The notes under the pieces were generated by a model. The model ran no database searches, was not told the origin of the DNA, and saw nothing but the letters and a program-made list of their open reading frames with translations. A stretch of 21,067 nt of DNA from positions 1 to 21,067 of the forward strand of contig NIVC01005211.1 in assembly GCA_002269645.1 (NCBI GenBank), in the 5' to 3' direction. Position numbers and translations under genes: made by a program. Position 1 is the first letter of the stretch; every line of letters starts with the position of its first letter. Source of the stretch: Macrostomum lignano (lineage: Eukaryota). Shown one piece after another: positions 2,212 to 20,498 of the stretch.

Positions 2212-2414
2212 TGTGGCGGTCACGCCACACGCGCGTACGCGCTCCAGCAGCCACCCCAACCCCGGCCGGGGTCAGGCCGGCGCTATGTGCACGGTCGCTG
2301 TGCGTTGATTGGCTGCCCAGTGTACACCGCTGGCCTATATAACTTTAGACTTTTGTCTCGCGCGCCTCCACCCTGCTACTTCCAAATAAACTTTACGTGG
2401 CTCAACTCGCCACA
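2212..2414 (+). repeat. 5' LTR of element A (203 bp)
   Basis: Identical to 6334-6536 except C2368/T6490. Contains ATTGG, TATATAA (2336-2342) and AATAAA (2385-2390). Confidence 0.97.
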
Positions 2415-2415
2415 T

Positions 2416-2428
2416 TGGTGAGCCCGAC
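2416..2428 (+). promoter_or_regulatory. Primer-binding site of element A, tRNA-Trp-like (TGGTGAGCCCGAC)
   Basis: Starts 1 nt after the LTR. One mismatch to the recalled complement of the metazoan tRNA-Trp 3' end (TGGTGACCCCGAC). Confidence 0.75.
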
Positions 2429-2461
2429 TCTCAACCGCCTGTTTGAGAATAACTCCTCAGT

Positions 2462-3154
2462 ATGTCAACTGAGTCTGCGGTGGCCCTCAAGCTGCCCACG
2501 TTCTGGGCCAGCCAGCCTCGCGCCTGGTTCATCCAGGCAGAGGCGCAATTCGTCTTCCGCAACATCACGCAAGACGCTACCAAGTACTTTCACCTCGTAG
2601 CCGCGCTGGACCAGCAGTCAGCCGATCGCCTGCTGGACGTGCTTGAGACACCGCCGGCTGAGAACAAGTACGATTCTCTCAAGGCCCGCCTCCTCGGCAC
2701 ATTCGGCCTGACGCAGCAACAGCGTGCCAGCCGGCTGCTCAACCTGGCCGGCCTCGGTGACCGCCGCCCGTCCAAGCTCATGGACGAGATGCTGGCCCTG
2801 CTCGGCAACCACCGGCCCTGCATGCTCTTCGAGGAGCTTTTTCGCCAGCAGATGCCGGCAGACATTCGCATGGCACTCGTCTCCGCGGATTTCGCTGACC
2901 CGCGCGCAGTTGCGCGACTCGCGGATGAACTCTGGGCGAGCCCGGCACAGCCCGTGGCCACCGCCACCCTGCCGCCAGAGCACCCGCCGGTAGTTGCTGC
3001 CACCGCCCGCCCAGCTCGCGCCAAGCCGCAGCAGCACCAGCCGAGGGAGGCCGACGGCCCCATCTGTTTCTTCCACCGGAAGTTCGGCGCCAAGGCCCGG
3101 CGTTGCGAGCCGCCCTGCCAGTTCTCGGGAAACGGACCGGCCGGCCGTCAGTGA
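2462..3154 (+). CDS. gag: Gag of element A (230 aa)
   Basis: N-terminal ALKLPTFWASQPRAWFIQAEAQF is typical of this Gag family. CHCC motif CFFHRKFGAKARRCEPPC at 3065-3118. Confidence 0.92.
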   Translation: MSTESAVALKLPTFWASQPRAWFIQAEAQFVFRNITQDATKYFHLVAALDQQSADRLLDVLETPPAENKYDSLKARLLGTFGLTQQQRASRLLNLAGLGDRRPSKLMDEMLALLGNHRPCMLFEELFRQQMPADIRMALVSADFADPRAVARLADELWASPAQPVATATLPPEHPPVVAATARPARAKPQQHQPREADGPICFFHRKFGAKARRCEPPCQFSGNGPAGRQ

Positions 3155-3171
3155 ACGTTTCGACGGCCGGC
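3127..3171 (+). promoter_or_regulatory. -1 programmed ribosomal frameshift signal (gag-pol) of element A
   Basis: Slippery G GGA AAC at 3127-3133 in the gag frame, a 6-nt spacer, then a perfect 10-bp stem (3140-3149 with 3162-3171). The protease is encoded in the -1 frame. Confidence 0.88.
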
Positions 3172-6100
3172 AGCAACAACCTCCTGCTCATCCCCGACGT
3201 AGCCACGGGCCGGCGCTTCTTGGTCGACACCGGCGCTGAGGTGAGCATTTTTCCTGTCTCGGGGGCAGACGCCCGCTCGCATACACCCGGCCCGCCGCTT
3301 TTCGCGGCCAACGGCAGCCCGATCCGCACGTTCGGCAGCCGGACACTGACGCTCGACCTCGGCGTCAAGGCCTGCACCTGGCCGTTCATCCTGGCCGAGG
3401 TGTCACGGCCGTTGATCGGCGCGGACTTCCTGCGGCACCACGGCCTACTGGTGGACATGCCGAACCGCCGTCTGCTCGACACTAGCTCGCTGTCCAGCGC
3501 CCACCTGCTGCTCGGGTCCGGCCCGGCACCTCAGCTCGCCGCCGCCGTCGCTGGGACCCGTACAGCCAGCTGCTCGCGGAGTTCCCGTCGCTGACGGAGC
3601 CGAGTTTCCAGAAAGCCCGGCCGCTCCACGGGGTCCAACATCATATTCCTACGACGGGCCCCCCTGTCCACGCCCGGGCGCGCCGCCTGCCGCCTGACAA
3701 GCTGGCGGTGGCCAAGGAGGAATTCCGCAACCTGGAGCAGCTGGGCATCGTGCGGCGGTCCTGCAGCCCCTGGTCGTCGCCGCTGCACATGGTGCCAAAG
3801 GCCTCCGGGGGTTGGCGGCCCTGCGGCGATTTCCGGCGGCTCAACGACGCCACGGTGCCCGACCGCTACCCGGTGCCGCACATTCAGGACTTTTCTGCGC
3901 GGCGGTCCGGGTGCAACATTTTCTCCAAGATCGACCTGGTGCGGGGCTACCACCAGATCCCGGTTGCCGAGGCCGACATCGCCAAGACGGCCGTCATCAC
4001 GCCATTCGGCCTGTTCGAGTTTCTCCGGATGCCATTCGGACTCAAAAACGCCGCCCAGGCCTTCCAACGGCTGATTGACACGGTCTGTCAGGGCTTGGAC
4101 TTCGTGTTCGCCTATATCGACGACTTCCTAGTGGCGAGCAGCGGCCCTCAGCAGCATCTGGAGCACCTGCGCACGCTGTTCCAGCGCCTGGCAGACAACG
4201 GCCTCCTCATCAATCCAGCCAAGTGCCAGTTTGGCCGCAGCGAAATCGACTTTCTAGGCCACCTCATCAACAGCCGGGGCGCCATGCCGCTGCCAGACAA
4301 AGTCGAAGCCATCGCCCGATTCGCTCCGCCCGCGACCTTCAAGGGCCTGCAAGAGTTCGCCGGCATGGTGAACTTCTATCACCGGTTCGTGCCGCGGGCC
4401 GCCCAGTTGCTGCGCCCCATCTACGGCGCCCTGGCCAGCAAGGACAAGATCGTTCAGTGGACACCGGAGCTGACGGACGCCTTCAACAGCACGAAGCAGG
4501 CCCTGGTTGACGCGACCATGCTTGCGCACCCGGAGCCCGACGCCCCAACGGCGCTGACGGTCGACGCCTCGGACACCGCCATCGGGGCGGTTCTGGAGCA
4601 GCGTGTCGGCGAGACCTGGCGGCCACTCGCTTTCTTCAGCCGCCAACTGCGGCCGGCTGAACAAAAGTACAGCGCTTTCGACCGGGAGTTACTCGCTCTC
4701 TATCTGGCCACGCGGCATTTCCGCTACTTTTTGGAAGGCCGCATCTTCACCGCCTACACCGACCACAAACCCCTGGTCGCGGCCATGGCCAAGTTGTCGG
4801 ATCCCTGGTCAGCGCGCCAGCAGCGGCACCTCGCATACGTGTCGGAGTTCACCACCGACATCCGGCACGTGGCAGGCAAGGACAATCCGGTGGCCGACGC
4901 CCTGTCCCGCTGCACCGTCACCTCTGTGCAGCCGCTGCTCCCCGGCATCGACTACGCGGCCCTGGCACGCGCGCAGCTAGTGGACGATCCCGCGCTCGCC
5001 GGCACCGGCCTGCGGCTCGAGCGCGTGATGTTGCGTCCCGGCCTGGAGGTCATCTGCGACACCGTGACCGGCCGCCCGCGCCCGCTGGTGCCCACCGACT
5101 TCCGCCGCGCCGTTTTCGACGCAGTCCACGGCCTGGCGCACCCGTCCGTACGCAGTACGCGGCGCCTGGTGTCCGAGAAGTTCGTGTGGCCGGGAATCAA
5201 CAGGGACGTCGGCCAATGGGCTCGCAGCTGCATCGCCTGCCAGACGGCCAAGGTGCAGCGCCACGTGACCGCCCCGCCCGCCAGCATCCCGGTGCCCAGC
5301 AGCCGTTTCGCGCACGTCCACATCGACCTTGTCGGACCGCTGCCGCAGTCCCGCGGCTTCACGCACCTGCTGACCGTAGTCGACAGGTTCTCCCGCTGGC
5401 CGGAAGCTTTCCCCTTGGCCGACACTTCCGCTGCCTCCTGCGCGTCCGCTTTCATCGCCGGTTGGATCGCCCGCTTCGGCGTGCCCAGTGACGTCACGTC
5501 CGACCGCGGCTCCCAGTTCACCTCCGGGCTATGGGCCAACGTGTCGCGGCTGCTGGGCGTGCAGCTGCACCACACCACCGCTTTTCACCCACAGGCTAAC
5601 GGCCTGGTGGAACGCTTCCACCGCCAGCTCAAGGCATCCCTGATGGCGCGCCTGACCGGACCGACTTGGACCGACGAGCTGCCCTGGGCGTTGCTCGGCA
5701 TCCGCACGGCTCCCAAGGAGGACATCGGCGCCTCCTCGGCCGAGCTGGTCTACGGCGCCCCGCTGACGGTACCGGGAGAATGCCTGCAGGCCGCGCCACC
5801 GAGGGCTCTTACGACCAGTTCCTGGCCCGGTTACGCAGCGCGGTGCAGTCGTTCCGGCCGCCTCCAACCTCGCGACATGGCCGCGTCGCTGCCTACGTGC
5901 CTGCTGCCCTGGAGTCCTGCACGCACGTCTTCATCCGCCGCGACGGCCACCGGCCATCTCTGCAGCGGCCGTACTTCGGGCCCTTCCAGGTCCTTGAGCG
6001 CGGCGACAAGACCTTCCGCCTCGACCTGGGCACGCGGCAGGATCACGTGGCAGTGGACAGACTCAAGCCTGCGGCGCTCGATCCCGGCGAGGCGATTCCG

Positions 6101-6313
6101 GCTCCGGCTCTGCGGCCACGAGGCCGCCCCCGCCTGGACGGCCGGCCACAACTGCCACGTGGTGGAGACCCTCCGGTCGCAGCTGCGCACCCGCAAGCGC
6201 CACCGGGGCTCCCACCAACGCGCCTCCCACCGGTGCAAGCGACCCGGCCTCCAGCGTCTGGTCGCCGCCAGCTTCCGCCTCGCCGGTGCCGCCCGACGCG
6301 GTTTCGGTCCTAG
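3127..6313 (+). CDS. pol: Pol of element A (protease-RT-RNaseH-integrase with GPY/F), interrupted by two 1-nt frameshifts (~3553-3555 and ~5781-5800)
   Basis: LVDTGAEVS (DTG at 3226-3234), YIDD (4113-4124), RNase H TVDASD...AFDRELL, HHCC zinc finger, and integrase core [23 protein letters not shown]. The C-terminal [10 protein letters not shown]...VDRLKPA is in the frame of ORF 5666-6313, which stops at 6311-6313. Confidence 0.92.
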
Positions 6314-6322
6314 GCCAGCGCT

Positions 6323-6330
6323 GGGGGGAG
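6323..6330 (+). promoter_or_regulatory. Polypurine tract of element A
   Basis: GGGGGGAG, 3 nt before the 3' LTR. Confidence 0.85.
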
Positions 6331-6333
6331 CCA

Positions 6334-6536
6334 TGTGGCGGTCACGCCACACGCGCGTACGCGCTCCAGCAGCCACCCCAACCCCGGCCGGGGTCAGGCC
6401 GGCGCTATGTGCACGGTCGCTGTGCGTTGATTGGCTGCCCAGTGTACACCGCTGGCCTATATAACTTTAGACTTTTGTCTCGCGCGCCTTCACCCTGCTA
6501 CTTCCAAATAAACTTTACGTGGCTCAACTCGCCACA
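6334..6536 (+). repeat. 3' LTR of element A (203 bp)
   Basis: Direct repeat of 2212-2414 (202/203 identical). Confidence 0.97.
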
Positions 6537-6697
6537 ATACCATAGATATATCTTCAAGTTGGTGATGCATACTTAGTTCCATCGTAGACTGCGCACACCC
6601 GAGAAAAATTCTGAATACTTACATCTAAATGATACTTACTACATCCAGTTGTCCCTGGAAAAAATTCTCAGAATAGGCCGAAGCATAAAATTCTTAC

Positions 6698-7109
6698 GGG
6701 TGCACGACAATTTGACTGCCACAATTTGACTGCCGACAAAATGACTGCGAACAAAATGACTGCGGTCAAAATGACTGCCGACAATTTGACTGCGGACAAA
6801 ATGACTGCCGACAAAATGACTGCCGACAATTTGACTGCCAACAAAATGACTGCCGACAAAATGACTGCCAACAAAATGACTGCCGACAATATGACTGCGG
6901 CAATTTGACTGCCAGCAAAATGACTGCGGCAATTTAACTGCCGAGCAATATGACTGCGGCAATTTGACTGCCAGCAATATGACTGCGGACAATTTGACTG
7001 CCGAGCAATATGACTGCGGCAATTTGACTGCGGTCAATTTGACTGCGGACAATTTGACTGCCGAGCAATTTGACTGCCAGCGAAATGACTGCCGAGCAAT
7101 TTGACTGCC
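6698..7109 (+). repeat. Left inverted arm: about 27 copies of a ~15-bp unit (ACAAAATGACTGCCG / ACAATTTGACTGCGG)
   Basis: The tandem array is visible directly. Confidence 0.93.
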
Positions 7110-7290
7110 TCAAATACTACACGTACACCCTCTTTATATATGTATTGATCGTATTTATGCAGGACTAAAAATTCGTTCTTTACGAGTAACGATAGCTCGT
7201 ACAAGCTACATTTGCCTTTCAGCAATACATGCATGTGTTATGACGAATGTTCAAACGGATCAAAAGTAAAAGTAAAGTTCAAAAGTAAAG

Positions 7291-7596
7291 ATGAGAGGGG
7301 GATGAGAGAGCAAAGATGAGTCAGAGAGTGAACACGATGTATGAGAGGAGAGAGGAGAGCGCAGAGAGAGAAGAGAAAAGACAAGAGAAGGAGAGAGTAT
7401 AGAAGAAAGAAGAGAAGAAAAGAAAAGGGAAGAAAGGAGAAAGGAAAGAGAGGAGTCAAAAGAGGGGAAAGAGAAGAGTACAGAGGAGAGAGGTGAGAGA
7501 ACATACCAGTATAAGAGAGTAAATATGACAGATGAGAGAGGGGAGATGAGAGAGCAGAGACGAGAGAGAAGTGAGAAAACAGAAGAGAAGATAGAA
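7291..7596. repeat. GA-rich polypurine low-complexity tract inside the foldback element
   Basis: Almost exclusively A/G on the + strand. Boundaries are approximate. Confidence 0.85.
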
Positions 7597-8004
7597 GGTT
7601 CAAAGGATGCAAGGAACATTGGGATCGAGAGGCAGAAGTAGAGGCCAGAGTTTTTCTGACATTCTGCGCCGCACCCCAGCCAACAATATCAATAGTTTGC
7701 CTCCAATCCTAATTTTACACGAATGTAATCTATGTTACAGTATGTTTAACTCTAATAATAAAAGTTTTTGCTTGAGTTTAACTTCAGATTTTAGAATATA
7801 TGCAAAATACGAGAGTAGTTCCTAAGATTGGAATTCCCATTTCCCACTGTTCAAAATCCGCGGGTTTCAACAGCTGTTACAGCTTGTTGTATAAAGGTTA
7901 TGTGTTCTGTTCTGCATCATTCTAGCTCGTAAATACAATATTTCACTACATGCATAGACTTAAAAGGGTTGACAGAGTGCTAAACTTTAGGAGCATCATT
8001 TTTC

Positions 8005-8384
8005 CGGCAGTCATTTCGCTGGCAGTCAAATTGCTCGGCAGTCAAATTGTCCGCAGTCAAATTGACCGCAGTCAAATTTCCGCAGTCATTTTGTCGGCAG
8101 TCAAATTGCCGCAGTCATATTGTCGGCAGTCAAATTTCCGCAGTCATTTTGTCGGCAGTCATTTTGTTGGCAGTCATTTTGTCGGCAGTCATTTTGTCCG
8201 CAGTCAAATTGTCGGCAGTCATTTTGTCCGCAGTCATTTTGTTCGCAGTCATTTTGTCCGCAGTCATTTTGTTCGCAGTCATTTTGTCGGCAGTCAAATT
8301 GCTCGGCAGTCAAATTGTCGGCAGTCAAATTGACCGCAGTCAAATTGTGGCAGTCAAATTGTGGCAGTCAATTGTCGTAGACCC
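8005..8384 (-). repeat. Right inverted arm: about 25 copies of the reverse complement of the same ~15-bp unit
   Basis: CGGCAGTCATTTTGT-type units. The innermost ~75 bp mirror 7021-7094. Confidence 0.93.
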
Positions 8385-10195
8385 CATTCTTACACATATA
8401 TTGTGTGCATCTTTGTACATGTAGAGGAGACTTGCGCATAAGTTGTCATTATGGTCCCATAAGAAATCGGTGTGTTTTGAAAATATTTCATTAAATCTGA
8501 AGCCGTAGCTACTACCCCCTGTTTGTGAGTAATATTAAATTTGATATCGGGCTTTGTACATGTGTACTTGATAGCTCGTACATGTTATAAAAGCTTTCTG
8601 ACAAAAAGACACATTTCGATTTTTTGATCATTTGAGTTATGGGGCTACCCCTAATGTACATGTACACGCAGCTGCTCAACTTTTGCTGGTCAACTTTTTA
8701 AATGTACTGATGGTGTCCATTTTTACACTGTACGCTGGAAAAACTTCGGAGGATAGACTGGAAGCCGTTCATTGTGTAGCTTATTAGTTTTATTTATTCA
8801 GTCTGTATTTCAACCAATAAAAAACTTTAAACCAAAAAAGGCATTTAACTGCGTAAAAGGTAGGTACAATATAATTTTGTTAAGAGCTACTTTGCTAAAA
8901 TATACTAGCGTTTTTTACCTTTAACGTACGAGCGTATTAACCTTTAACTTATTAATAACGCGACGACTATTTACTCTAAGATTTCAAACGGTGATCAATT
9001 GCACAAGTTGTACATTCATCCCGATTAGGCATTTTGTTTAATTCTGAACTTTGCAAGCCTAAAACTGTTTAGGCCTACACTGCCACATGTGTGCATTGCT
9101 ATGCTTTTGGTACAGAATGAATGTCAATCATTTAATCAGTAAAATGGTATTTAACTACGAGGGAGGGGCCTAGGCTTAGCCGCCTAGGCCTATGAACACT
9201 GTTTATTTGCTTTACCTTTGGCTTTAAGTAGCTTTATAAAGAAGCTACTGCCTACTTAAAGGTAGAGTTGTTGAAGATCTGCAACAGCAGACTGCAGAGC
9301 AGACTAGTGAGGGGCGAGGGCCTATATATTTAAATTAGGTCTTTGACTAGACTAGGCCTACTTATATGCCATGGCCATATCACTATCAGGGATCAGGCCA
9401 TAGGCATAGGCCTAGTCTTTAGTTTGGAAGGTGACATGTACACCAGGATTTCCTGGCGTACAACAAGGGTCTTACCATTTTTCAGTGTACATCAGGATAT
9501 ATCTAGGCATACATGACATAGCAGATACATTGTGTCAAATGACAGTTTTTTATATTGGCACACAAACCTGGCACACAAATGAGGTCTCAACTCTTGTCAT
9601 TTTTTGCCTCTGGAATTGAACCTGGTAGGCCTATACATTAATACACAATCCAAACTATGGCCCATAGTCAATTCAGCATTGATGATGTAGGCCTTATTAT
9701 CTCAATATCTACATTAGAAAAAACTTTCTTTGTTTATGCCAATAGATGGCTCACCTAATCTAGATATCAGTAGGCTAAGCCTATATGTAGATACCCTGCA
9801 TTGTGCTATCTGCACTAAAAATTAGAGTCAAATATATTTCTGTTTTGTGTGGGAAGATTTTCTATAAAATGATAAAATAACATTATCCTCATAGTGTGGA
9901 TTAGAGCTAGAGGTAAGTTAGGGCCTATTGACATTTTCCCTAACTAAGATTAAGAAAAGATGCCTACCTAGAGTTGTAGTCTAGCATGTCTAGACTTTAC
10001 TATAAATAGCTAAGTAGATAAGCCTAGGTAAGCCTAGGTAAGAATAAGATAAAAAGGAATTTTAAGCTAATTCAATTTGATATTAATATTAATAACCTCT
10101 TTAAATGTTCTATAGAGCCAATTTCAATGCAATATAAACCCATGTTAAATGTTAATATTTTTCAAATTTGAAATCAGTGCATAACCTTAAATTTA

Positions 10196-10963
10196 TGTAC
10201 TAGTGTTATGCCTTTATCATAGTATACTCGAATGTTCTTTCAATGTAATAACTGTATATTCGAATCTTTCTTAGAAACTGAATCTACGCGAACGCCAAAT
10301 AATAGTTTGTTTTAATGCGCGAAATAAATTGGAGAATTATTTTTTGTTTTAATCGTATGTGGGGAAAATCACTATATATAGGAGCGGTTTTGCGACAAAT
10401 ATACTCTAACTGTCTTTTACTCGTGAGCAAATAATTGCGAACAGAATAAGCAGTTCAATCTAAACCATTTCAAAGTCTTTGAGCTAAATAGCGACTTATT
10501 TATTTGCAAAACCTGTGAAACGATTCTAAGAAATTTGCTAAGAGAAGGGAATTGGGACTAATTCTTGGAGATATACCAAGAGAGGCGCCGTGACCCTCTA
10601 GTCTCGGTGAACGCCCGATTAGGACTATACACTAATACATATACCAGTACTAGACCGCTCAGGCCATAAGCTACTAGAACGCTACCAGAAAGCAAGCCAT
10701 AAGCTACCAGAAACGCTACTAAGAACGCTACCAGAAACGCTACTAAGAACGCTACCCAGAAATATTTAAATGAAATTCTAAGAAATAGTTAGGGAGTAAA
10801 AGCAAGTATAATCAGGATAACTGTAGTTGGCAAATCGGTGGGATTAAAATTGATAAAGTAAGAGGTGAAAGGCCTGTAACAACTTTGGTAGCAGCTCGTA
10901 GGATATTTAATAAACACTAATAGTTAGAAGTTTAGAAAGACAGAGCCAAAAAGACCTGTCACA
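10196..10963 (+). repeat. 5' LTR of element B (768 bp)
   Basis: Differs from 18129-18899 by T10206/C18139 and one 3-bp (TAA) indel. TATA-like TATATATAGG at 10373-10382 and AATAAA at 10909-10914. Internal AACGCTACCAGAA-type repeats at ~10677-10760. Confidence 0.96.
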
Positions 10964-10965
10964 GC

Positions 10966-10976
10966 TGGTGGCAGCG
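10966..10976 (+). promoter_or_regulatory. Primer-binding site of element B, tRNA-Leu(AAG/TAG)-type (TGGTGGCAGCG)
   Basis: Starts 2 nt after the LTR end. 11-nt match to the recalled complement of the metazoan tRNA-Leu(AAG) 3' end (TGGTGGCAGCGGTGGGATT). Confidence 0.85.
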
Positions 10977-11064
10977 ATAAGGATTAGAGAAACGGCGCGA
11001 ACTCTTAAAGCTAGATTCAGAAGAATTCCGAAGAATAATTTGAAAAGTTTTTCGTAGAGAAAAG

Positions 11065-12069
11065 ATGAATCAGAATCAGGCTAATGACGCCATCGCCATG
11101 CTGGCAGAAGAATTGCGAAACCGACTAGAGATAGGGCCGATGAGACACGTTAAGATTCAGAAATTCACACCTACGCAAGACATTCGGATCTGGCTAACAG
11201 CCTTCGATCAGCGCTGTGAAGTAGAAGGGATAGATGAGGAACATAGGAAGCAGGAATTGCTAGCTAATCTGGACCTGTCCACTGCATTCGCAGCGGTACA
11301 GCGCCTAAATCTGCCCGAGGATCTTGAATACGAAGAGTTCAAAGAGCGACTGATTGAGCGATTCGGAAGAATCGGTAGTTCCGCAGAATTCAGAGAGGAG
11401 TTTCGTGGAAGAATGCAAGGCAGAAATGAGCCTGTAGAGACTTTCGCAGACTGTTTGATCGAGCTGGCATCGCGTGCATTTCCGAATATGACGGTTGAGC
11501 AAAGGGAAGAAGAAATTGTTGAGCAATTCATCAAGGGAATCAGAATTCCGTCAGAGACCCGTGAGAAGCTAATCTTTGCGCAGCCAGGCAATTTACAAGA
11601 GGCTAGAAGAATGCTAAGAAGGATGGAGGCTGCGTGGAACATGTCTCACAAGAATGTCAACATGAGAATGGCCAAAGGCGAAGGCGAGAGTGAGCAGAAG
11701 GCAGATCAGGAGAAGCTTGAGGACATCATCAAGAAGCAGAGAGCAGAGTTAGAGCAACAGAAGAAGGCGATTGAGGAGCTGATGGAAGAGAAGAGAGCTA
11801 GCCGTCAGCAGTATCATCCGCAGAATCAATATCAAACGTACGCTCAGGTCGCTGGACCGCCGCAGCAGCCGAGATATCGGCCGCAGCAGCAGCAGCAGCA
11901 GCAGCCAGTATGGCGCGGTCAGCCTCAGTTCAACAGGCAGCCACAGCAACAGCAGCAGCCTCGAGCCTGCTACAATTGCGGGAAGCTTGGCCACATGGCG
12001 AGGAATTGCCAGAGCGCTAGGCCAAACGGTCAGCGAGTGATGAACTACCAGAAGCAGCAGGGAAACTGA
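11065..12069 (+). CDS. gag: Gag of element B (334 aa)
   Basis: Capsid-like QG.NE.VETFA.CL.ELA region, a coiled coil, a Q/P-rich linker and a CCHC knuckle CYNCGKLGHMARNC at 11968-12009. Confidence 0.92.
   Translation: MNQNQANDAIAMLAEELRNRLEIGPMRHVKIQKFTPTQDIRIWLTAFDQRCEVEGIDEEHRKQELLANLDLSTAFAAVQRLNLPEDLEYEEFKERLIERFGRIGSSAEFREEFRGRMQGRNEPVETFADCLIELASRAFPNMTVEQREEEIVEQFIKGIRIPSETREKLIFAQPGNLQEARRMLRRMEAAWNMSHKNVNMRMAKGEGESEQKADQEKLEDIIKKQRAELEQQKKAIEELMEEKRASRQQYHPQNQYQTYAQVAGPPQQPRYRPQQQQQQQPVWRGQPQFNRQPQQQQQPRACYNCGKLGHMARNCQSARPNGQRVMNYQKQQGN
12060..12066 (+). promoter_or_regulatory. -1 frameshift slippery site of element B (G GGA AAC, immediately before the gag TGA)
   Basis: The -1 frame is open from 12060 through the protease DTG at 12429-12437. 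Possible downstream pseudoknot: AGCG/CGCT (12072-12084) plus GAGGG/CCCTC (12075-12103). Confidence 0.82.
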
Positions 12070-15000
12070 GTAGCGAGGGCCGCTTTGCGAGGCCACGTCC
12101 CTCTAGCAACAATTATCGCGAATTTCAGGCCTCTGAATTTGTAAATAATGCGTATCGAAGTAATGCCAGACAGTATAGTAACAGCAGAACGCATGCCGAA
12201 TTCAATAAATTTCACAGAAAACCAAATAAAAATTTTGCACCTCGTGTACATACGCCGCTTGCACCTAGTCATGCGTCTGCCAGCCACAGTAGGCCGAATA
12301 ATAAAGTACAAAGTACAGTAATTCCGAATGAGCATTCGAAGAAAGAATTCGAAGAAGATACGGAGAGAAAAGGACGAGAAGCAGTCGTCAATGGAATGCT
12401 AAGAAACCGAAAGGTCTACTTCCTGCTAGACACAGGAGCTGGACATAATTTCCTAAGCAAGAGTACTTGGAAAAAGATGTTCAGAAGTGATGAAATTGAG
12501 TTGACTACTAGAAGAGTGACTACGTTTGACGGATCAAGTGTGCGAATTGAAGGAGAAGTCAGAACGAAAATACGATTCGGAGAGATAGAGATTAGACAGA
12601 GTTCCTGCTGTGCAATCACGAGTGTGACGACATACTCGGGATGGAGTTCTTCATGAACTTCTGCGACAGCATCAGCCTTTCCAGAGGAATGCTTGTATTA
12701 AAAGAAGGGACCTGCATCCCAATTCAGTTTACAAAATTACCCGTACGGGTTTGCCGAATCTACAGCCATAACAGCGTGACTATACCAGCGAATAGCGCTC
12801 TTCGAATTCCAATTAGAATGACTAAAGGATCAGAAGCTAACTATGGAACGCCAATGGTCATTGACACCATTGGAGGCCAAGTGACTACGAAGAAAATTCC
12901 TTAGAGATGATTCCTACTCTAGTGACCATGAACGATGGAACAGGAGTAGTGGAAATAATCAATCGACAGAATGACGATATCAGACTGACAAGATCTACGC
13001 TGATTGGAGTGGCCAAACCCTTGAAGCCAGGAGGCCTGGCCTACTCTATTAACAGCAAAGGTCAAGCCAGTTCAGATGATGCAATTAGGACAGTGAAGAG
13101 TGAAGAGAGTGAGTACAGCTGGATAAACGAGATCGATTTAGGAGAAGAGCTAACATCAGAACAGAAAGGACTAGTGATCGATTTGCTAAAGAAGAACAAA
13201 GAAGCGTTTTCGCAGACCAGCCAAGACATGGGTCTCACCCATCTTGTGACTCATGAAATATCTCTAAAAGATACCACACCAGTCAGGATTCCAACACGCA
13301 GAATTCCACCACATCTGCAAAAGCAAGTAGATGAGCAACTTGACGACATGCTTGCTAAGAACCTGATCCGACCGTGCTATAGTACTTATTCGACGCCGCT
13401 AGTGATAGTTCCTAAGAAGGATGGATCCATAAGAATCGTCAGTGACTTCAGGGTCCTGAACTCGAGAGTGAACTATTACCCATATCCATTGCCGAACATA
13501 CAAGAGACTTTCGCTCAGTTATCTGGAAGCAAGTACTTCAGTAGTCTAGATTTAAACTCTGGATACTGGCAGGTACCTATCAAAGAAGAGCACAAATTTA
13601 TGACAGCCTTTTCCACCCTTACCAGAGGCCAGTTCGAATATCAGGTCATGGCACAGGGCTTGTCTAACGCTCCTGGTACATTCCAGAGACTCATGAATTT
13701 GGTGCTGATGGGAATACAGCACAAATTCGCAATGTCGTACATAGATGATATTGTGACATACTCAGAGAAATTCGAAGATCATCTCGGTCATCTGCAAGAA
13801 GTATTTCAAAGACTAATCTCAGCAGGACTAAAATTAAGACCAAAAAAGTGCAACTTGTTTCAGAAAGAGCTAAAGTACTTAGGGCATATCGTAGGAAGAG
13901 AAGGGATTAGAACAGACCCAGCTAAGATCGAAGCGATACAGTCATGGCCTACGCCGAAAGAGGTCAAAGAACTGCGAAGCTTCTTGGGGTTGTGTAACTA
14001 CTACTGCAGATTTGTAAAGAATTACGCAGAGGCAGCGCATCCGCTATTTCAATTAACTAAGAAAGGTATTCAAAACTTTAGGGAAAAGTGGACCAAGAAG
14101 CATGACGAGGCTTTCCAGCAGTTGAAGCAGAGAATGACATCGACCGAAGTACTCGCGTACCCAGAATTCTCAGAGAACGAAAATGTTCGAATGGTATTAG
14201 ACACCGACGCAAGCGAAGACCGAATTGGTGCTTGCCTGGGTCAAATACAATCGGACGGGGTTGAAAGACCCATTGCTTACTTCAGCAGAGCAATGAAAGA
14301 GTCTGAGAAAAGATATCCGATTACCAGAAAAGAGCTATTAGCGCTAGTAGATGGCATGAAACACTTCCGATTTTACCTAATTGGCAAAAGGTTTCTGGCC
14401 CGCACAGACCACAAGGCAATTCTATGGTTACTGCGCCAGACCGAAGCCCAAGGAATTCTCGGAAGATGGATTGAAAGACTGAGTGAGTTTCAATACGATA
14501 TTGAGCACCGCAGTGGAGCCAAACATTCCAACGCAGATGGATTGTCACGGCGACCCTCGAACCACCAGTTGAACAGAAAGATGCTAAGATCAAAGAGAAT
14601 GAGGCCGAAATTCCTAAGATGACAATAGAAACCAGCGCTGTGAAACAAGTCGTGACTAACAGCGTGAAAGATCAGAGTTGCCAGACCGACTTCACAGAAG
14701 ATTATGAATCAGATTCCGAAGACGAATTCGCAGATGATGAATACGAGGATGCCAGTGATCAGTTCGAAGATGATGATGACATCTATGAAGATGCAAGAGA
14801 CTATTTCGAAGAGGAAGAGACAGTGTGCAGAAAGCTTCTGACAGATTACCTCTCGGTTCCATTGAAGAAAGAGCAGCTGACTTCAGCGCAGCATGCTGAT
14901 CCTTCTATAAGAACCTTGATGGACTGGAAGCAGAAGAAAGTGCGTGAGCCGAAGTTGCCAGAAAATGCATCCGGAGAGTTGAAGAAGATGGTTAAGTTCT

Positions 15001-16567
15001 ACGAGCAGATGAAAATCGAAGATGAAATGCTGACAGTCAGTGAAGACGGTAAACGAAAGTAGTATTGCCAGAGAAGGATTGAGAAAGATGTATTCAAAGA
15101 GCTGCATGACAGTCCGCTAGCAGGCCACCTAGGTCGGGACAAGACGCTACAGCGAGTCCGAGACCGATTCTGGAGGCCGGGGTTAGTGACTGCAGTTGAA
15201 AAGTACATCGCAGAATGCATCCCGTGTCTGGAAAGTAAAAGCGGAAATAAAGTACGAGCACCGGTGCAGACCTTTCCGATATGTGAGCCATTCCATCGGC
15301 TGCACATAGATTTGATCGGTCCAATATCAAAGGAAAGCAGAAGAGGACACCGATATGTACTTACTGTCGTAGATAGTACAACAAAGTTCCCATTCGCTTT
15401 TCCGGTTCGGAATCAGAAATCCGCGACTGTTATCAAAACGATACAAGAGAGAATTTTCAGCGAGTATGGCCAGTGTCAATGGATACACACTGATAATGGC
15501 AAGACTTTTGTAAGTCACCAATTTCAGGCATTCTGTACCCTATACGGCATTAAGCATACTTGCACTACGCCTTACCATGCTCAGAGTAACGGGCTTGTCG
15601 AAAGATTTAACAAGCAAATTAAATCGATTGTAACCTGTTTGATTGAAAAGGATCATTCAGATTGGGATCTGCTCATACCCGCCGCTTTGGTAGCTGTGCG
15701 AACCAGTGTTAATCAAACTACTGGGTTCACACCACACTACTTACTATTCGGGAGAGAAGCAGATTTGCCAATAGATAGCATTGTGAAAAGGCCAAGACTA
15801 TACCGAGACTATCCTAGCTATGTGCTGGATCATGCGAAGAGAATCGAGGAGACAAAAGCAATTGTGCGAAGACAACTCGAAAAGGTGCGAGAGAAAAGGC
15901 AAGAGGACGAAGTTGAGAATCGTCAGCCTAAAAATGTGCCAGTTGGCTGTCTCGCTCTCATCAACAACCTCAACTTCACCAAGAGGAGAGCCACAAATTT
16001 CATCGAAAGAAAAGAGCAGCCTATCGAGTTCTTGCGAAGATATCTGATACAGTTTTCCGTGTGCAAAGAGAAATCAATGGCGAAAGGAGCGGAGAAAAAC
16101 TATTAGTACATAGAAATAATCTGACTCCAGTGCCGAAATCCGAAATTGATTTACCAGAGGAAATTAATAATAATTTAAAACCAGCACCAGTGCCAACTAA
16201 GAAGAAAGAACAGCCGAAGCCGAAGAAAAGAATTTGCCATAGACAAAAAGAAGTTAGAATTCCAGAAGTTCAAATTTTAGAGGAGGAAAGCTCAGACGAA
16301 GAAAACAGAATTCAATGGAGAGTATTCGCAGATCCGAATTCGCAGAGTGAAAACGAAGGAAATGAAGAATTGAACAGTGAGAATACAGAGAGAGCGACTG
16401 ACTCAGATGAGCCATCAGAAGAAGAAGAAGGAGCATTAGAGTTAGAGGAGGAACGAGTTCAGCCAGAGAATAGGTATAACTTTAGGATGACTCAGCGAAG
16501 GAGAGAAAGAGAAGGCGCGACAGGATTTGTGCCCCGAAGGCGCTACGCGAAATATTTAGCACCTTAA
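12060..16567 (+). CDS. pol: Pol of element B (PR-RT-RH-INT), broken into ORF-track pieces by about six small frameshifts
   Basis: LLDTGAG, YIDD (13738-13749), RNase H LDTDASE...TRKELL and ELHDSPLAGH...CIPC zinc finger. Integrase core HIDLIGP/HTDNG/NGLVERFN and a degenerate GPY/F (KRAAYRVL...VHRNNL). Breaks at ~12599, 12893-12896, ~14559, 15056-15077 (compensating pair) and ~15981-15990. Confidence 0.9.
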
Positions 16568-16817
16568 ATCATGACGTAAGCAATTTCCCATAAGAAACAG
16601 TGTTAAATAGTTAAAATTCCGTATTAGAATTACTTATCTGCTTATAAAATTTGACATGCTGTACATAGAGCGAATCTGTAAATACCATATTAATCTACAA
16701 AATGCGATCTTTAATTTGATACTTTACTCAAGAAAATCTATCAAAAAATAAAAAAGTTATAAAAAGAAATAGAAAATCCATAAAAATTTAGTTGTCAAAT
16801 CTGTCAAATCTGGCATG

Positions 16818-16883
16818 CCCCGCCCCACGCGCGAGGGAGTGCTTCGAAGAGGTCCAGTTTTTCGGCCCGCCAGCCTATAAATA
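16818..16883 (+). promoter_or_regulatory. Candidate internal promoter for ORF3
   Basis: GC box CCCCGCCCC (16818-16826) and TATAAATA (16876-16883) in a GC-rich island after an AT-rich stretch with AATAAA (16747-16752). The start context is CAAAATG. Confidence 0.5.
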
Positions 16884-16966
16884 CGAGCACCCTGCAGGCC
16901 CCACAGATCCCATAGCTCACTGCTAGCTTCCTTTCTATTCTAAGAGCCATTCGCAGAGAAATCAAA

Positions 16967-17842
16967 ATGAACAACTCTATTGACATCTTGGACGAGTTAA
17001 TTGGCAATCTGTCAGACGATATGGAGCCCCAGCCAGCGCCCAACACCGACGAAAATGAGGCACCGCTTCGATGTGCAACACGTCCAAAGGCGCCTGGTGT
17101 ATCCAGCAAACGGCCAAGAACATCATCGCCAGCTTCATCGCCTTGCCGCCAAATGAGGGTCGAAGGCCCCGAGCAGAAGCGCGCCGCCCTGGTGGCAGCA
17201 CAGGCAGCTGCGCCCGTGCGCTCCTATGTTGTCAAGGCCACGCCAGGATCGTCGACATCAAGCCGAACGCAGCAGTTGGTGTCACCGCCAGCTGCCCCAT
17301 CATCGAGAAAGACCCCGGCACCACGGCAGAAGAAATCGACAGCTGCGACACCGCCAGCTCAGCAGCCAGCGTCGCAGCCGAGCCTGCAATCAGCGCAGCA
17401 GTCAGCGCTGCAGCCGAGCCTGCAATCAGCGCAGCAGTCTAGCCAGCCATCAGCACTACAGCCGAGCCAGCAGCAATCGAATTCGCAGAGAGATTTTCAT
17501 CGCATCGTCCGAGAACTTGTGGAGACTCGCGGAGCAGAGGTGGAAAAGCTACGCTTCCACATTGAGCAATACGCACTGAAAGTAGCGTACCACCGATCCG
17601 ACAGCCGACAGCGCTACCCCCAATGCTCGCAAATTTGGACACACCTGAAGTTTCTAAGGGATCAATTCAGTTACCAGGAAGCTGTCGCTGTTCTCCAGGA
17701 CGTCGCCTATCGCCTCCAGCGAGCTATAAGAGCCAACCCGCCGCCAGCGCTGACGGTCCTCGACGAAGAGTACCGATGGTTTTTCGCTCAAGTCGGCTGG
17801 CCCTACTATCGCGACCTCCCGGAGCCCTGCATGTTTATCTGA
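16967..17842 (+). CDS. ORF3 of element B: 291-aa protein of unknown function (not env-like)
   Basis: Uninterrupted ORF between pol and the PPT. Acidic N-terminus, S/P/Q-rich low-complexity middle with basic patches, and a ~115-aa helical-looking C-terminal region. No signal peptide or transmembrane stretch is visible. Confidence 0.8.
   Translation: MNNSIDILDELIGNLSDDMEPQPAPNTDENEAPLRCATRPKAPGVSSKRPRTSSPASSPCRQMRVEGPEQKRAALVAAQAAAPVRSYVVKATPGSSTSSRTQQLVSPPAAPSSRKTPAPRQKKSTAATPPAQQPASQPSLQSAQQSALQPSLQSAQQSSQPSALQPSQQQSNSQRDFHRIVRELVETRGAEVEKLRFHIEQYALKVAYHRSDSRQRYPQCSQIWTHLKFLRDQFSYQEAVAVLQDVAYRLQRAIRANPPPALTVLDEEYRWFFAQVGWPYYRDLPEPCMFI
17374..17439 (+). repeat. In-frame 36-bp-period duplication in ORF3 (QPSLQSAQQS twice)
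   Basis: Identical 30-mers at 17374-17403 and 17410-17439. Confidence 0.9.
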
Positions 17843-18115
17843 ACTATTGAGGTGAACTAACTTTTGCGTTGCCTTTAATAACAATTTTGCCTTTTATAAT
17901 ACTTTTATAATAGTTCGTTTTGCTTCCATAATAGTTCTCACTTTAATGGTTTACCTACATAATAGTTCTATCACAACCATTTTATGCACCAATTGTTTTA
18001 GCACTGAATTGTGTTTTCTGCACCTTGCTTTGCACCTTTTCACCTGCATTTTCCTACGATATCAATTTTTCACTGTATACATATAATATAGTATTTCGTT
18101 CAAAATTTGATATAT

Positions 18116-18127
18116 AGAGGAGGAAAG
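18116..18127 (+). promoter_or_regulatory. Polypurine tract of element B
   Basis: AGAGGAGGAAAG, 1 nt before the 3' LTR. Confidence 0.88.
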
Positions 18128-18128
18128 T

Positions 18129-18899
18129 TGTACTAGTGCTATGCCTTTATCATAGTATACTCGAATGTTCTTTCAATGTAATAACTGTATATTCGAATCT
18201 TTCTTAGAAACTGAATCTACGCGAACGCCAAATAATAGTTTGTTTTAATGCGCGAAATAAATTGGAGAATTATTTTTTGTTTTAATCGTATGTGGGGAAA
18301 ATCACTATATATAGGAGCGGTTTTGCGACAAATATACTCTAACTGTCTTTTACTCGTGAGCAAATAATTGCGAACAGAATAAGCAGTTCAATCTAAACCA
18401 TTTCAAAGTCTTTGAGCTAAATAGCGACTTATTTATTTGCAAAACCTGTGAAACGATTCTAAGAAATTTGCTAAGAGAAGGGAATTGGGACTAATTCTTG
18501 GAGATATACCAAGAGAGGCGCCGTGACCCTCTAGTCTCGGTGAACGCCCGATTAGGACTATACACTAATACATATACCAGTACTAGACCGCTCAGGCCAT
18601 AAGCTACTAGAACGCTACCAGAAAGCAAGCCATAAGCTACCAGAAACGCTACTAAGAACGCTACCAGAAACGCTACTAAGAACGCTACCCAGAAATATTT
18701 AAATGAAATTCTAAGAAATAGTTAGGGAGTAAAAGCAAGTATAATCAGGATAACTGTAGTTGGCAAATCGGTGGGATTAAAATTGATAAAGTAAGAGGTG
18801 AAAGGCCTGTAACAACTTTGGTAGCAGCTCGTAGGATATTTAATAAACACTAATAATAGTTAGAAGTTTAGAAAGACAGAGCCAAAAAGACCTGTCACA
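18129..18899 (+). repeat. 3' LTR of element B (771 bp)
   Basis: Direct repeat of 10196-10963. Confidence 0.96.
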
Positions 18900-19560
18900 T
18901 TTATAGTATAATAAAAGTTTTTTAATTCTTGGCATGGCCTAACCTGCTAACCATTAGTCTAGGCTTATGTTGTTATCAATTTTTTATTCAGCTTTAGTTT
19001 AATTAATAAGGCCAAGAAATCAAAATAATTGTCTATTAGACTAGGCCTATTAAATTTAAATAGTTTTTGGCTTTAAATCAAAATTAGAAGTTTGGAAATT
19101 GGATATTGATAAATGGTTCAAAGTAAAATAATAAAAGCAAAATACAACTTGAATACCTTATATTTTGAGGCTCTATTCTCTATTCAATAAAAAATTATAA
19201 CCTTATTATTTGCTCTAGGCCTATTTGCTTTAATCCATATTTTCAAAGATCATTTAAGTAGTCTACTGAGCCTTAGGAGCCACCAAAGTAGTCTGCTTAG
19301 AATCAAAGGCTATCACTCATTAGCTAGCTAGAGCAATCTACTAAGCCTTAGAAGCCATTAAAATAATCTATTAAGCTCCAAGTCCATTGATATTATTAGT
19401 GCAACATATCATTTTCATAGATATTCCAATATATTTTTCAAGTGCTATGCCTAGTGATTCAACAAATGTGAACATGTTAAATGCCTACTTAAATCTGCAT
19501 GTTCAATGCCTGCTTTATAAAGTTTTTGGGTCATTTTAAAGCATAGGCTTTTATACACGA

Positions 19561-19611: not shown

Positions 19612-20498
19612 TGTAACAGGGGTTTGCTTCCCTCTTTAGCTATCCCACTGCTGGTACCAAATTGTAACAGTGGTTATTGTTCTCTCTATTTAAATCTCTA
19701 CTGCTGACACCAAAGTTGTTACAAGGCTAACTTCCTACACTAATCTTTAATTGTTCTTGTTAAGTTGGTAGCTGCCACCAGGATTATTCCATTAATAAAT
19801 TATGAGTTTATCAATCTTAGAATAATCCGATAAATGTTTCTTAGAATAGGTCTGAGTATTTAGTCTGAGTATTTGGTCTGAGTATTTATTCTGAGTATTT
19901 AGTCTGAGTATTATTCTTAGAAAACTGTTAGCCCTGAAAGATTTTACTCCTCTGTTATTCTGGTAGCGTTTCTGTTATTCTGGTAGCGTTCTACTTAATA
20001 ATTAGGCCTAAGTGGTATTTTGGCTTACTGGTATATGTATTTCATGTACTTTGCAAGTCCTTGGGCATTACCGAGATCAGAGGGTCACAGCCTCTGGTTA
20101 TCTTACACGTATCACTTCAGATCTACTTTGTATTCTCTTACTACTCAATACTACTGCTTCTCAATAGTATGTACTATATACGCTTCAGTCAATTTCACTC
20201 TTACTTCGTAAAAGGAATTAACACAGAAAACACTTCTTCAATTCTTATTTTCTCGAACTCTTACTATTCGCTATCAATTACTTATTGCAGAACCGCGATG
20301 CACGAGGTTGGTCTCTCCTCCACTGAAATTGCTTCTATTTATACTAAAATTTGCTACAGTTTTAAACAAAAATTCGTTAGCGCAAAATATTATAGAAAAT
20401 ACAAGTATTAAAACAAAATATGTTTCTTAGTTTTTGGCGTGAATTCAAATTGACTAAATGGTGACTATTTTATAAAGAAATCGGGAGGGCCCTGCACA
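19612..20498 (-). mobile_element. Solo LTR (887 bp) of a family related to, but diverged from, element B
   Basis: TG...CA ends and a 4-bp TSD TATA (19608-19611 and 20499-20502). The reverse complement shares blocks with the B LTR (GTGACCCTCT..TCTCGGT, ATACATATACCAGTA, TAGAACGCTACCAGAA, TGTAACAACTTTGGT) and ends CCTGTTACA versus B's CCTGTCACA. Confidence 0.85.

Follow-up and report, generated by a model that had tools for sequence, protein, structure and literature searches.

A non-env third open reading frame exchanged among Ty3/Gypsy retrotransposons of Macrostomum lignano, with a possible regulatory role

Described accessory genes and the third frame

There are several accessory genes of mobile elements with which the third open reading frame (ORF3) described here can be compared. 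Accessory transposon proteins are reported to evolve fast (PMC13547354). There are published cases of non-env third ORFs (PMC5408684), of a third ORF driven by an internal promoter (PMC4402516), and of anti-silencing proteins in transposons (PMC5735166). The functional precedent is the foamy virus protein Tas, which has an internal promoter and an acidic activation domain; its response elements are described as sharing little sequence among themselves (PMC3798896). The Gypsy clades reported in Macrostomum lignano are Mag, CsRN1, Gmr1/Osvaldo, and Mdg3/Micropia, and the available part of that LTR survey makes no mention of a third ORF or a non-autonomous form (PMC12801592). The literature searched, which included part of PMC12801592 and the main text of PMC13524379, held no account of the ORF3 family and no transactivator encoded by an invertebrate Gypsy element.

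The window (the whole stretch of 21,067 nt that was analyzed) contains an 8.7-kb Ty3/Gypsy LTR element at 10196-18899, and ORF3 lies between its pol and its 3' LTR. ORF3 is similar to foamy virus Tas/Bel1 in being a non-structural gene of 200-300 aa located 3' of pol and beside U3, in its internal TATA promoter (putative here), in its acidic activation segment (a candidate here), and in its low conservation between relatives (PMC3798896). It differs in belonging to an invertebrate Gypsy element without env and in the N-terminal position of the acidic segment (PMC3798896), and no homology between the two emerged from the searches described below. A further difference is that no response element common to the ORF3 internal promoter and U3 was detected; 7-9-mers shared with its own U3 were not in excess over those shared with the U3s of other types.

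As with VANC of the Arabidopsis VANDAL transposons, there is a fast-diverging accessory gene and there are tandem arrays in the non-coding DNA (PMC5735166). However, VANDALs are plant DNA transposons, and the likeness is one of analogy, with no homology seen in the searches; their arrays are specific to the element type (PMC5735166), whereas the array core found here is common to 14 of 15 LTRs. The ORF3s of bdelloid rotifer LTR elements are likewise non-env genes in the env slot of invertebrate elements, and they are modular and family-specific (PMC5408684). Those genes are captured enzymes (GDSL esterase and DEDDy exonuclease), whereas the ORF3 considered here combines disorder with an unmatched helical domain (PMC5408684). 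An enzymatic ORF3 of the bdelloid type was rejected, as no Pfam family scored above cut-off and the model is all-helical. Oikopleura Tor3b/4b also have a third ORF in a Gypsy-type element and an internal promoter (putative in the present case), but the Tor ORF3 is a membrane glycoprotein Env and the present one has no membrane features (PMC4402516).

The window element and its ORF3 protein

The element possesses the parts that define Ty3/Gypsy, namely an LTR pair, a primer-binding site, a polypurine tract, a target duplication, gag, and the PR-RT-RH-INT order. Its clade may be Gmr1/Osvaldo. The 4-bp target-site duplication (10192..10195, with the other copy at 18900-18903) has no strand, and related elements are likewise flanked by 4-bp duplications. 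All other features of the element are on the plus strand. Comparison of the LTR pair delimited the 5' LTR (10196..10963), with TG...CA ends, and the 3' LTR (18129..18899), in which U3 is approximately the first 200 bp and a TATA box is found near 18306. Over 768 aligned bases, the two LTRs are separated by a single substitution and a single 3-nt indel. The primer-binding site (10966..10983) is of the tRNA-Leu type, with an 11-nt match in the window copy and fuller matches in relatives; two of the three loci scanned for this assignment were tRNA-Leu(AAG) genes. The gag gene (11065..12069) encodes 334 aa with one CCHC knuckle, as identified by its ORF and Pfam, and pol (12021..16567) encodes protease, RT, RNase H, integrase, and an acidic tail. 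Pfam matches were obtained for gag, RT, and RNase H. The polypurine tract (18116..18127) was recognized from its sequence.

There are about six frame breaks in the pol of the window copy. These are either assembly errors or damage to that copy, because an open frame of at least 1500 aa is present in nine of the 18 copies with an identical RT protein and because, at the break positions, contigs from public runs show single-base indels relative to the window. The earlier note had considered the element recently active; the near-identical LTRs agree with this, and the broken pol of the window copy is a qualification. In one run, X3, antisense spliced-type joints were seen over pol (12132-13623 and 15227-15365), which suggests antisense transcripts.

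A repeat scan located a 12-bp tandem array downstream of the LTR TATA box (10703..10756, with a second copy at 18636-18689). Its core, CGCTACCA, is present in 14 of the 15 LTRs examined, and the array units vary. Words presumed to be STAT-like are found in 10 of 15 U3s and words presumed to be Fox-like in 14 of 15; the window U3 also has words taken to be E2F-like. The STAT-like and Fox-like words suggest that host factors drive the LTR. No heat-shock element was found in the LTRs extracted. Although the LTRs otherwise diverge, 14 of 15 have kept a block past the TATA box that can form a hairpin (10586-10625 and 18519-18558 in the window). The LTRs, for example those of the window (18760-18899), L044, and L046, end in one to five degenerate units of LTR end plus primer site (L### labels are fetched loci of related elements in the same genome). 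The LTR looks as if it has grown repeatedly by capture of its own boundary.

Other elements are present in the window. On the minus strand, 0.7 kb from the element, there is a relic solo LTR (19619-20498), which belongs to a different cassette type within the clade and is 84-89% identical to the LTRs of L051-L053. A second young, GC-rich Gypsy element (2212-6536) has identical LTRs of 203 bp and a Gag of the DUF7041 type, and it lacks a third ORF. A foldback-like element (6691-8377) contains a 15-bp unit repeated in inverted arrays; in L101, a transposase-like ORF that is inserted into an ORF3 has similar arrays on its flanks. A minisatellite with a period of approximately 31 bp (1-510) was found by the repeat scan.

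ORF3 (16967..17842, plus strand) is a non-env accessory gene that encodes 291 aa in an open frame without stops. Its N-terminus contains an acidic amphipathic helix (aa 5-13, 16979..17005, plus strand), a candidate activation motif that was recognized from its charge and pattern and from a helix in the structural model. All 16 full-length members have an N-terminus with a net charge of -7 to -10 and a hydrophobic-xx-hydrophobic-hydrophobic pattern. The linker that follows is variable, of low complexity, and predicted to be disordered, and it contains short conserved motifs (17057..17272, plus strand): EAPLRxxTRP (aa 31-40), KRPR (aa 48-51), a KRAAL helix (aa 68-80), RSxVV, and RTxQ. Across the family, EAPxRxxTxP is found in 14 of 16 members and KRxx in 16 of 16, together with a KRAAL-type helix. 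The C-terminal domain (aa 171-291, 17477..17839, plus strand) was delimited by alignment and by AlphaFold2, which predicted five helices from 24 sequences (pLDDT 87.8, pTM 0.83). Residues R210, D212, P218, L230, W271, W278, and P285 are invariant in this domain, which is mildly basic (K+R minus D+E of +2 to +8). The full-length model has helices at 6-12 and 68-80 with disorder between them and a confident domain at 171-291; the linker is disordered and there is no confident packing against the C-terminal domain.

ORF3 does not appear to be an envelope gene. A simple Kyte-Doolittle scan found no signal peptide or transmembrane segment in any of the 16 full-length members, and the peak 19-residue hydropathy is 1.02 in the window ORF3 and at most 1.11 in all 16. 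The window ORF3 has no furin site; furin-like sites are present in three of the 16 members, at differing and unconserved positions. The 16 members have one to five Cys and zero to two sequons, rather than the Cys-rich glycosylated ectodomain of Env. A retroviral or errantivirus Env was thus rejected, as these members lack a signal peptide, a transmembrane anchor, a conserved furin site, and a Cys-rich ectodomain. What the earlier note had read from the window, namely an intact 291-aa frame in the env position without membrane or furin features, an acidic N-terminus, basic patches and other quoted motifs, and a helical C-terminal region, was found in each respect.

The same note had not recognized the domain, and the searches agree with it. 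Full-length ORF3 had no match among 5.8 billion proteins. The C-terminal-domain alignment had none among longer proteins, and the domain had none among PDB sequences. The Pfam search gave nothing above cut-off; a weak histone match (E 0.11) was rejected because it lies within low-complexity sequence. There was no usable match in the Atlas search, and Foldseek of the domain model against PDB and viral libraries, where an env or other characterized domain might have appeared, gave nothing at E<=0.001. The VIA fold search reached a best Z of 7.9, which is background for helical bundles and does not show that the fold is new; its nearest, non-significant folds are generic interaction bundles. Tas was not matched by Pfam, profile, or viral-fold searches with ORF3, nor VANC by Pfam, PDB-sequence, or fold searches. 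Against 1.84 billion representatives, the domain profile gave eight matches, of which two were TPR-repeat false positives. The six real matches are three hypothetical proteins of M. lignano, two mis-joined M. lignano transposon models, and one further cluster. The best matches to the protein of this cluster in the window's genome are only 38-48% identical, so the ORF3 family also occurs in a second genome or strain, if not in more. No non-transposon homologue was found among these database matches. The accessory-factor reading of the earlier note therefore stands as far as a non-env gene under selection is concerned, and its other option, a captured host domain, is left unsupported.

Family, selection, and exchange of ORF3

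ORF3 is widely represented in the genome. A DNA search gave at least 34 near-identical copies at 94% identity or more and at least five at 71-73%. The C-terminal 119 aa are encoded at at least 150 genomic places with 27-100% identity, and a divergent member used as query reached many more. Fifty-two ORF3 loci were fetched, and 43 of them sit in elements of the window's Gypsy clade: 24 are of the full type, 18 lack pol, and one has integrase only. The other nine have none of the clade's gag or pol nearby. The 30 copies nearest to the window ORF3 comprise 15 pol-less elements, 14 of the full type, and one that is truncated. Pol-less elements are mostly 4.9-6.1 kb and have a different Gag of approximately 190 aa and an intact ORF3. 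They are moving, because their copies have near-identical LTRs and target duplications. The pol-less Gag (L031, L036, L042, L045, L046, L053, L059, L082, and others) has about 190 conserved aa, a hydrophobic stretch, and a C-x2-C-x11-H-x-C finger. This finger resembles that of the L074/L075 Gag, and the N-terminus matches the local full-type Gag.

Similar ORFs occur in more distant elements. Twelve elements from RT groups farther from that of the window (11 are 59-61% identical and one is 78% identical) include at least nine with a post-pol ORF of similar plan, and these ORFs are unrelated-looking or very distant in sequence to the window ORF3. When sister-clade ORF3s were compared with the domain, three groups gave no match and a fourth was weakly collinear (probability 10%, E 0.003, scoring above all 59 shuffles); the weakly matching ORF3 had no database match. 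The sister Gypsy lineages L083-L091, L093, and L094 possess other uncharacterized ORF3s with acidic disordered N-terminal parts and helical C-terminal parts. One sister sub-group seems to have two such ORFs.

The substitution pattern indicates that the ORF3 family is under purifying selection, with dN/dS of about 0.1-0.5. For full-length ORF3, dN/dS is 0.09 between the window and L031 and 0.11 between the window and L032. For the domain, it is 0.18-0.56 in all 35 pairs with measurable dS out of 253; the remainder were saturated or almost identical. Pairs of closely related pol-less elements gave 0.20 and 0.19 for ORF3, on few changes. Among near-identical copies, from codon 21 onward, 26 of the 42 variable sites are third positions. 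The overall range, 0.09-0.56, is well below 1, in agreement with a retained accessory gene as envisaged by the earlier note.

Disruption among near copies gave a more mixed result. ORF3 is frameshifted in 16 of the 30 nearest copies in the assembly, which counts against the expectation that young copies are kept open, but its rate per kb is about equal to that of pol. The ORF3 rate is approximately 0.65/kb (16 events in 28 copies, leaving out L029 and L030, which are degraded or misaligned; approximately 0.9/kb with L029), versus 0.64/kb for pol (16 events in six copies). One break, near 17617, recurs in six near copies. It was not listed in four of four public runs, nor in the 12 entries, out of 16, that were examined for another set. 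It may be a real null allele; contigs drop rare variants. The frameshifts, the env position, and the nine loci without the clade's gag or pol nearby could be signs of a decayed env, of a passenger gene that evolves neutrally, or of a host domain that was captured and does nothing for the element. This is very improbable and is largely refuted by the lack of membrane features (signal peptide and transmembrane segment) and of a furin site that is conserved, by the low dN/dS, by a disruption rate that is the same as that of pol, and by searches that found no host-gene homologue.

Comparisons of element parts indicate that ORF3 is exchanged between elements by recombination, usually together with U3. 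Elements with 99% identical RT DNA have ORF3 domains that are 43-81% identical and U3s that are 58-100% identical. RT dS in the window's group is 0.02-0.04, versus a saturated dS for ORF3. There are also elements with identical RT and near-identical Gag and integrase, yet with ORF3 domains 53-64% identical to that of the window. ORF3 diverges far faster than Gag or Pol. Along sliding comparisons, the fall in identity coincides with the TATA box or the start of the ORF for window/L032, window/L043, and L058/L060, and it lies 0.5-0.8 kb upstream for window/L081, L055/L058, and L055/L060. In five pairs, the same ORF3 is found on full-type and pol-less backbones, with Gags 33-37% identical and U3 mostly shared. 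Domain identity correlates with LTR identity (rho 0.62) versus Gag identity (rho 0.22), on pairs that are not independent. In L032, the exchange was confined to ORF3 and the LTR is identical to that of the window, so the pairing of ORF3 and U3 is not obligate. Since ORF3 and U3 are neighbors on the RNA, their co-inheritance and the retention of ORF3 in pol-less elements are explicable by linkage alone and are no proof of a protein-target pair. An ORF3 tree that respects the RT groups is not rejected (p-AU 0.20), so exchange is shown only inside RT lineages; a conflict of the ORF3 and RT trees between RT groups was considered and is unsupported at this p-AU. Recombinants within ORF3 (L037, L023, L025-L027, L030) join the N-terminus of one type to the C-terminus of the window's type.

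These comparisons bear on two further explanations. ORF3 might serve the particle stage or the integration stage, for example as an adaptor for nuclear import or chromatin tethering, or as a cofactor of RNA packaging that binds R/U5 arrays or Gag. It has basic motifs, the hairpin block of 14 of 15 LTRs and the tandem arrays past the LTR TATA box are possible RNA targets, and a short Gag is retained together with ORF3 in pol-less elements. This role is nonetheless quite unlikely, as divergent ORF3 domains beside an identical RT and near-identical Gag and integrase indicate poor co-evolution, and as a separate promoter and an acidic helix would be unneeded. Alternatively, ORF3 might mediate competition between elements, through exclusion or self/non-self recognition of cassette types under frequency-dependent selection. 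Many deeply diverged types on near-identical backbones with young insertions could be produced in this way, but gag-pol sweeps by recombination give the same pattern, and the explanation is improbable.

Transcription and possible function of ORF3

A TATA box lies 65-120 nt before the ORF3 start in 12 of 17 ORF3 types, versus 0.3 expected, and there is a conserved block upstream of the TATA box. In the window, this putative internal promoter (16851..16883, plus strand) consists of a block at 16851-16865 and a TATA box at 16876-16883. Its conservation suggests that ORF3 has its own internal promoter. Contigs from all eight public runs examined cover ORF3 and some continue into the LTR. None of these runs is recorded as RNA, and their contigs do not resolve a start site. 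The contigs are probably RNA, because the 5' flank of the element is uncovered in three of four runs and one run has antisense spliced-type joints. A start site at 16917, where contigs begin in two runs, was rejected, as a variant at 16947 accounts for these contig ends. The splice joints listed for the public-run contigs include none that leads into ORF3.

The acidic helix, basic KRxx, folded domain, and conserved upstream TATA box would fit a nuclear regulator. It appears possible, at somewhat short of an even chance, that ORF3 is a nuclear factor that is made from its own internal promoter and raises LTR transcription, as a Tas-like transactivator or an anti-silencing protein. Transactivation or anti-silencing is the simplest reading because of the acidic helix, the basic motif, the folded terminal domain, the internal TATA box, and the position beside U3. 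ORF3 would be expressed from a separate subgenomic mRNA that ends in the 3' LTR, and the protein could be imported into the nucleus via KRxx. The acidic helix and linker motifs might then recruit co-activators, and the C-terminal domain might target the LTR, either directly or via a host DNA-binding protein. The persistence of many old ORF3-U3 types on homogenized gag-pol could mean that each is a separate regulatory niche or silencing escape.

Several observations count against LTR-directed activation. The fold searches gave no known DNA-binding fold, and the basic charge of the domain is mild. The 7-9-mers that the ORF3 promoter shares with its own U3 are not in excess, and ORF3 was swapped without the LTR in L032. 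More than half of the near copies (16 of 30) are frameshifted in the assembly, with one break recurring in six.

ORF3 might instead be a motif hub that antagonizes a host pathway (small-RNA or chromatin silencing, innate signaling, or the cell cycle), acting in trans via protein contacts without specificity for its own LTR. Several short linker motifs are kept across very divergent members, and the domain is a weakly basic helical bundle with generic interaction bundles as its nearest, non-significant folds. ORF3 can be swapped without the LTR and diverges far faster than Gag or Pol, and the STAT-like and Fox-like U3 words suggest an LTR that is driven by host factors. However, pol-less elements keep ORF3 intact although a purely trans-acting product could be lost there, and the measured dN/dS is below 1. 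Such an antagonist is rather unlikely.

The transactivator or anti-silencing reading can be extended to the whole clade. Dozens of old ORF3-U3 cartridges, each with a helical targeting domain not described before, would be shuffled onto a gag-pol chassis and pol-less satellites and would serve as a private on-switch or anti-silencing key, convergent with Tas and VANC. This extension is somewhat unlikely.

ORF3 is a real, selected, and previously undescribed accessory-protein family with modular exchange, and its C-terminal domain is a new structural target. Whatever the function of ORF3, this exchange means that most of the clade's regulatory diversity goes unseen when families are defined by RT. 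If ORF3 does activate or protect its own LTR, the variants would be natural panels of proteins and promoters for specificity tests in a species with transgenesis, and animal retrotransposons would encode counter-silencing regulators, as complex retroviruses and plant VANDALs do.
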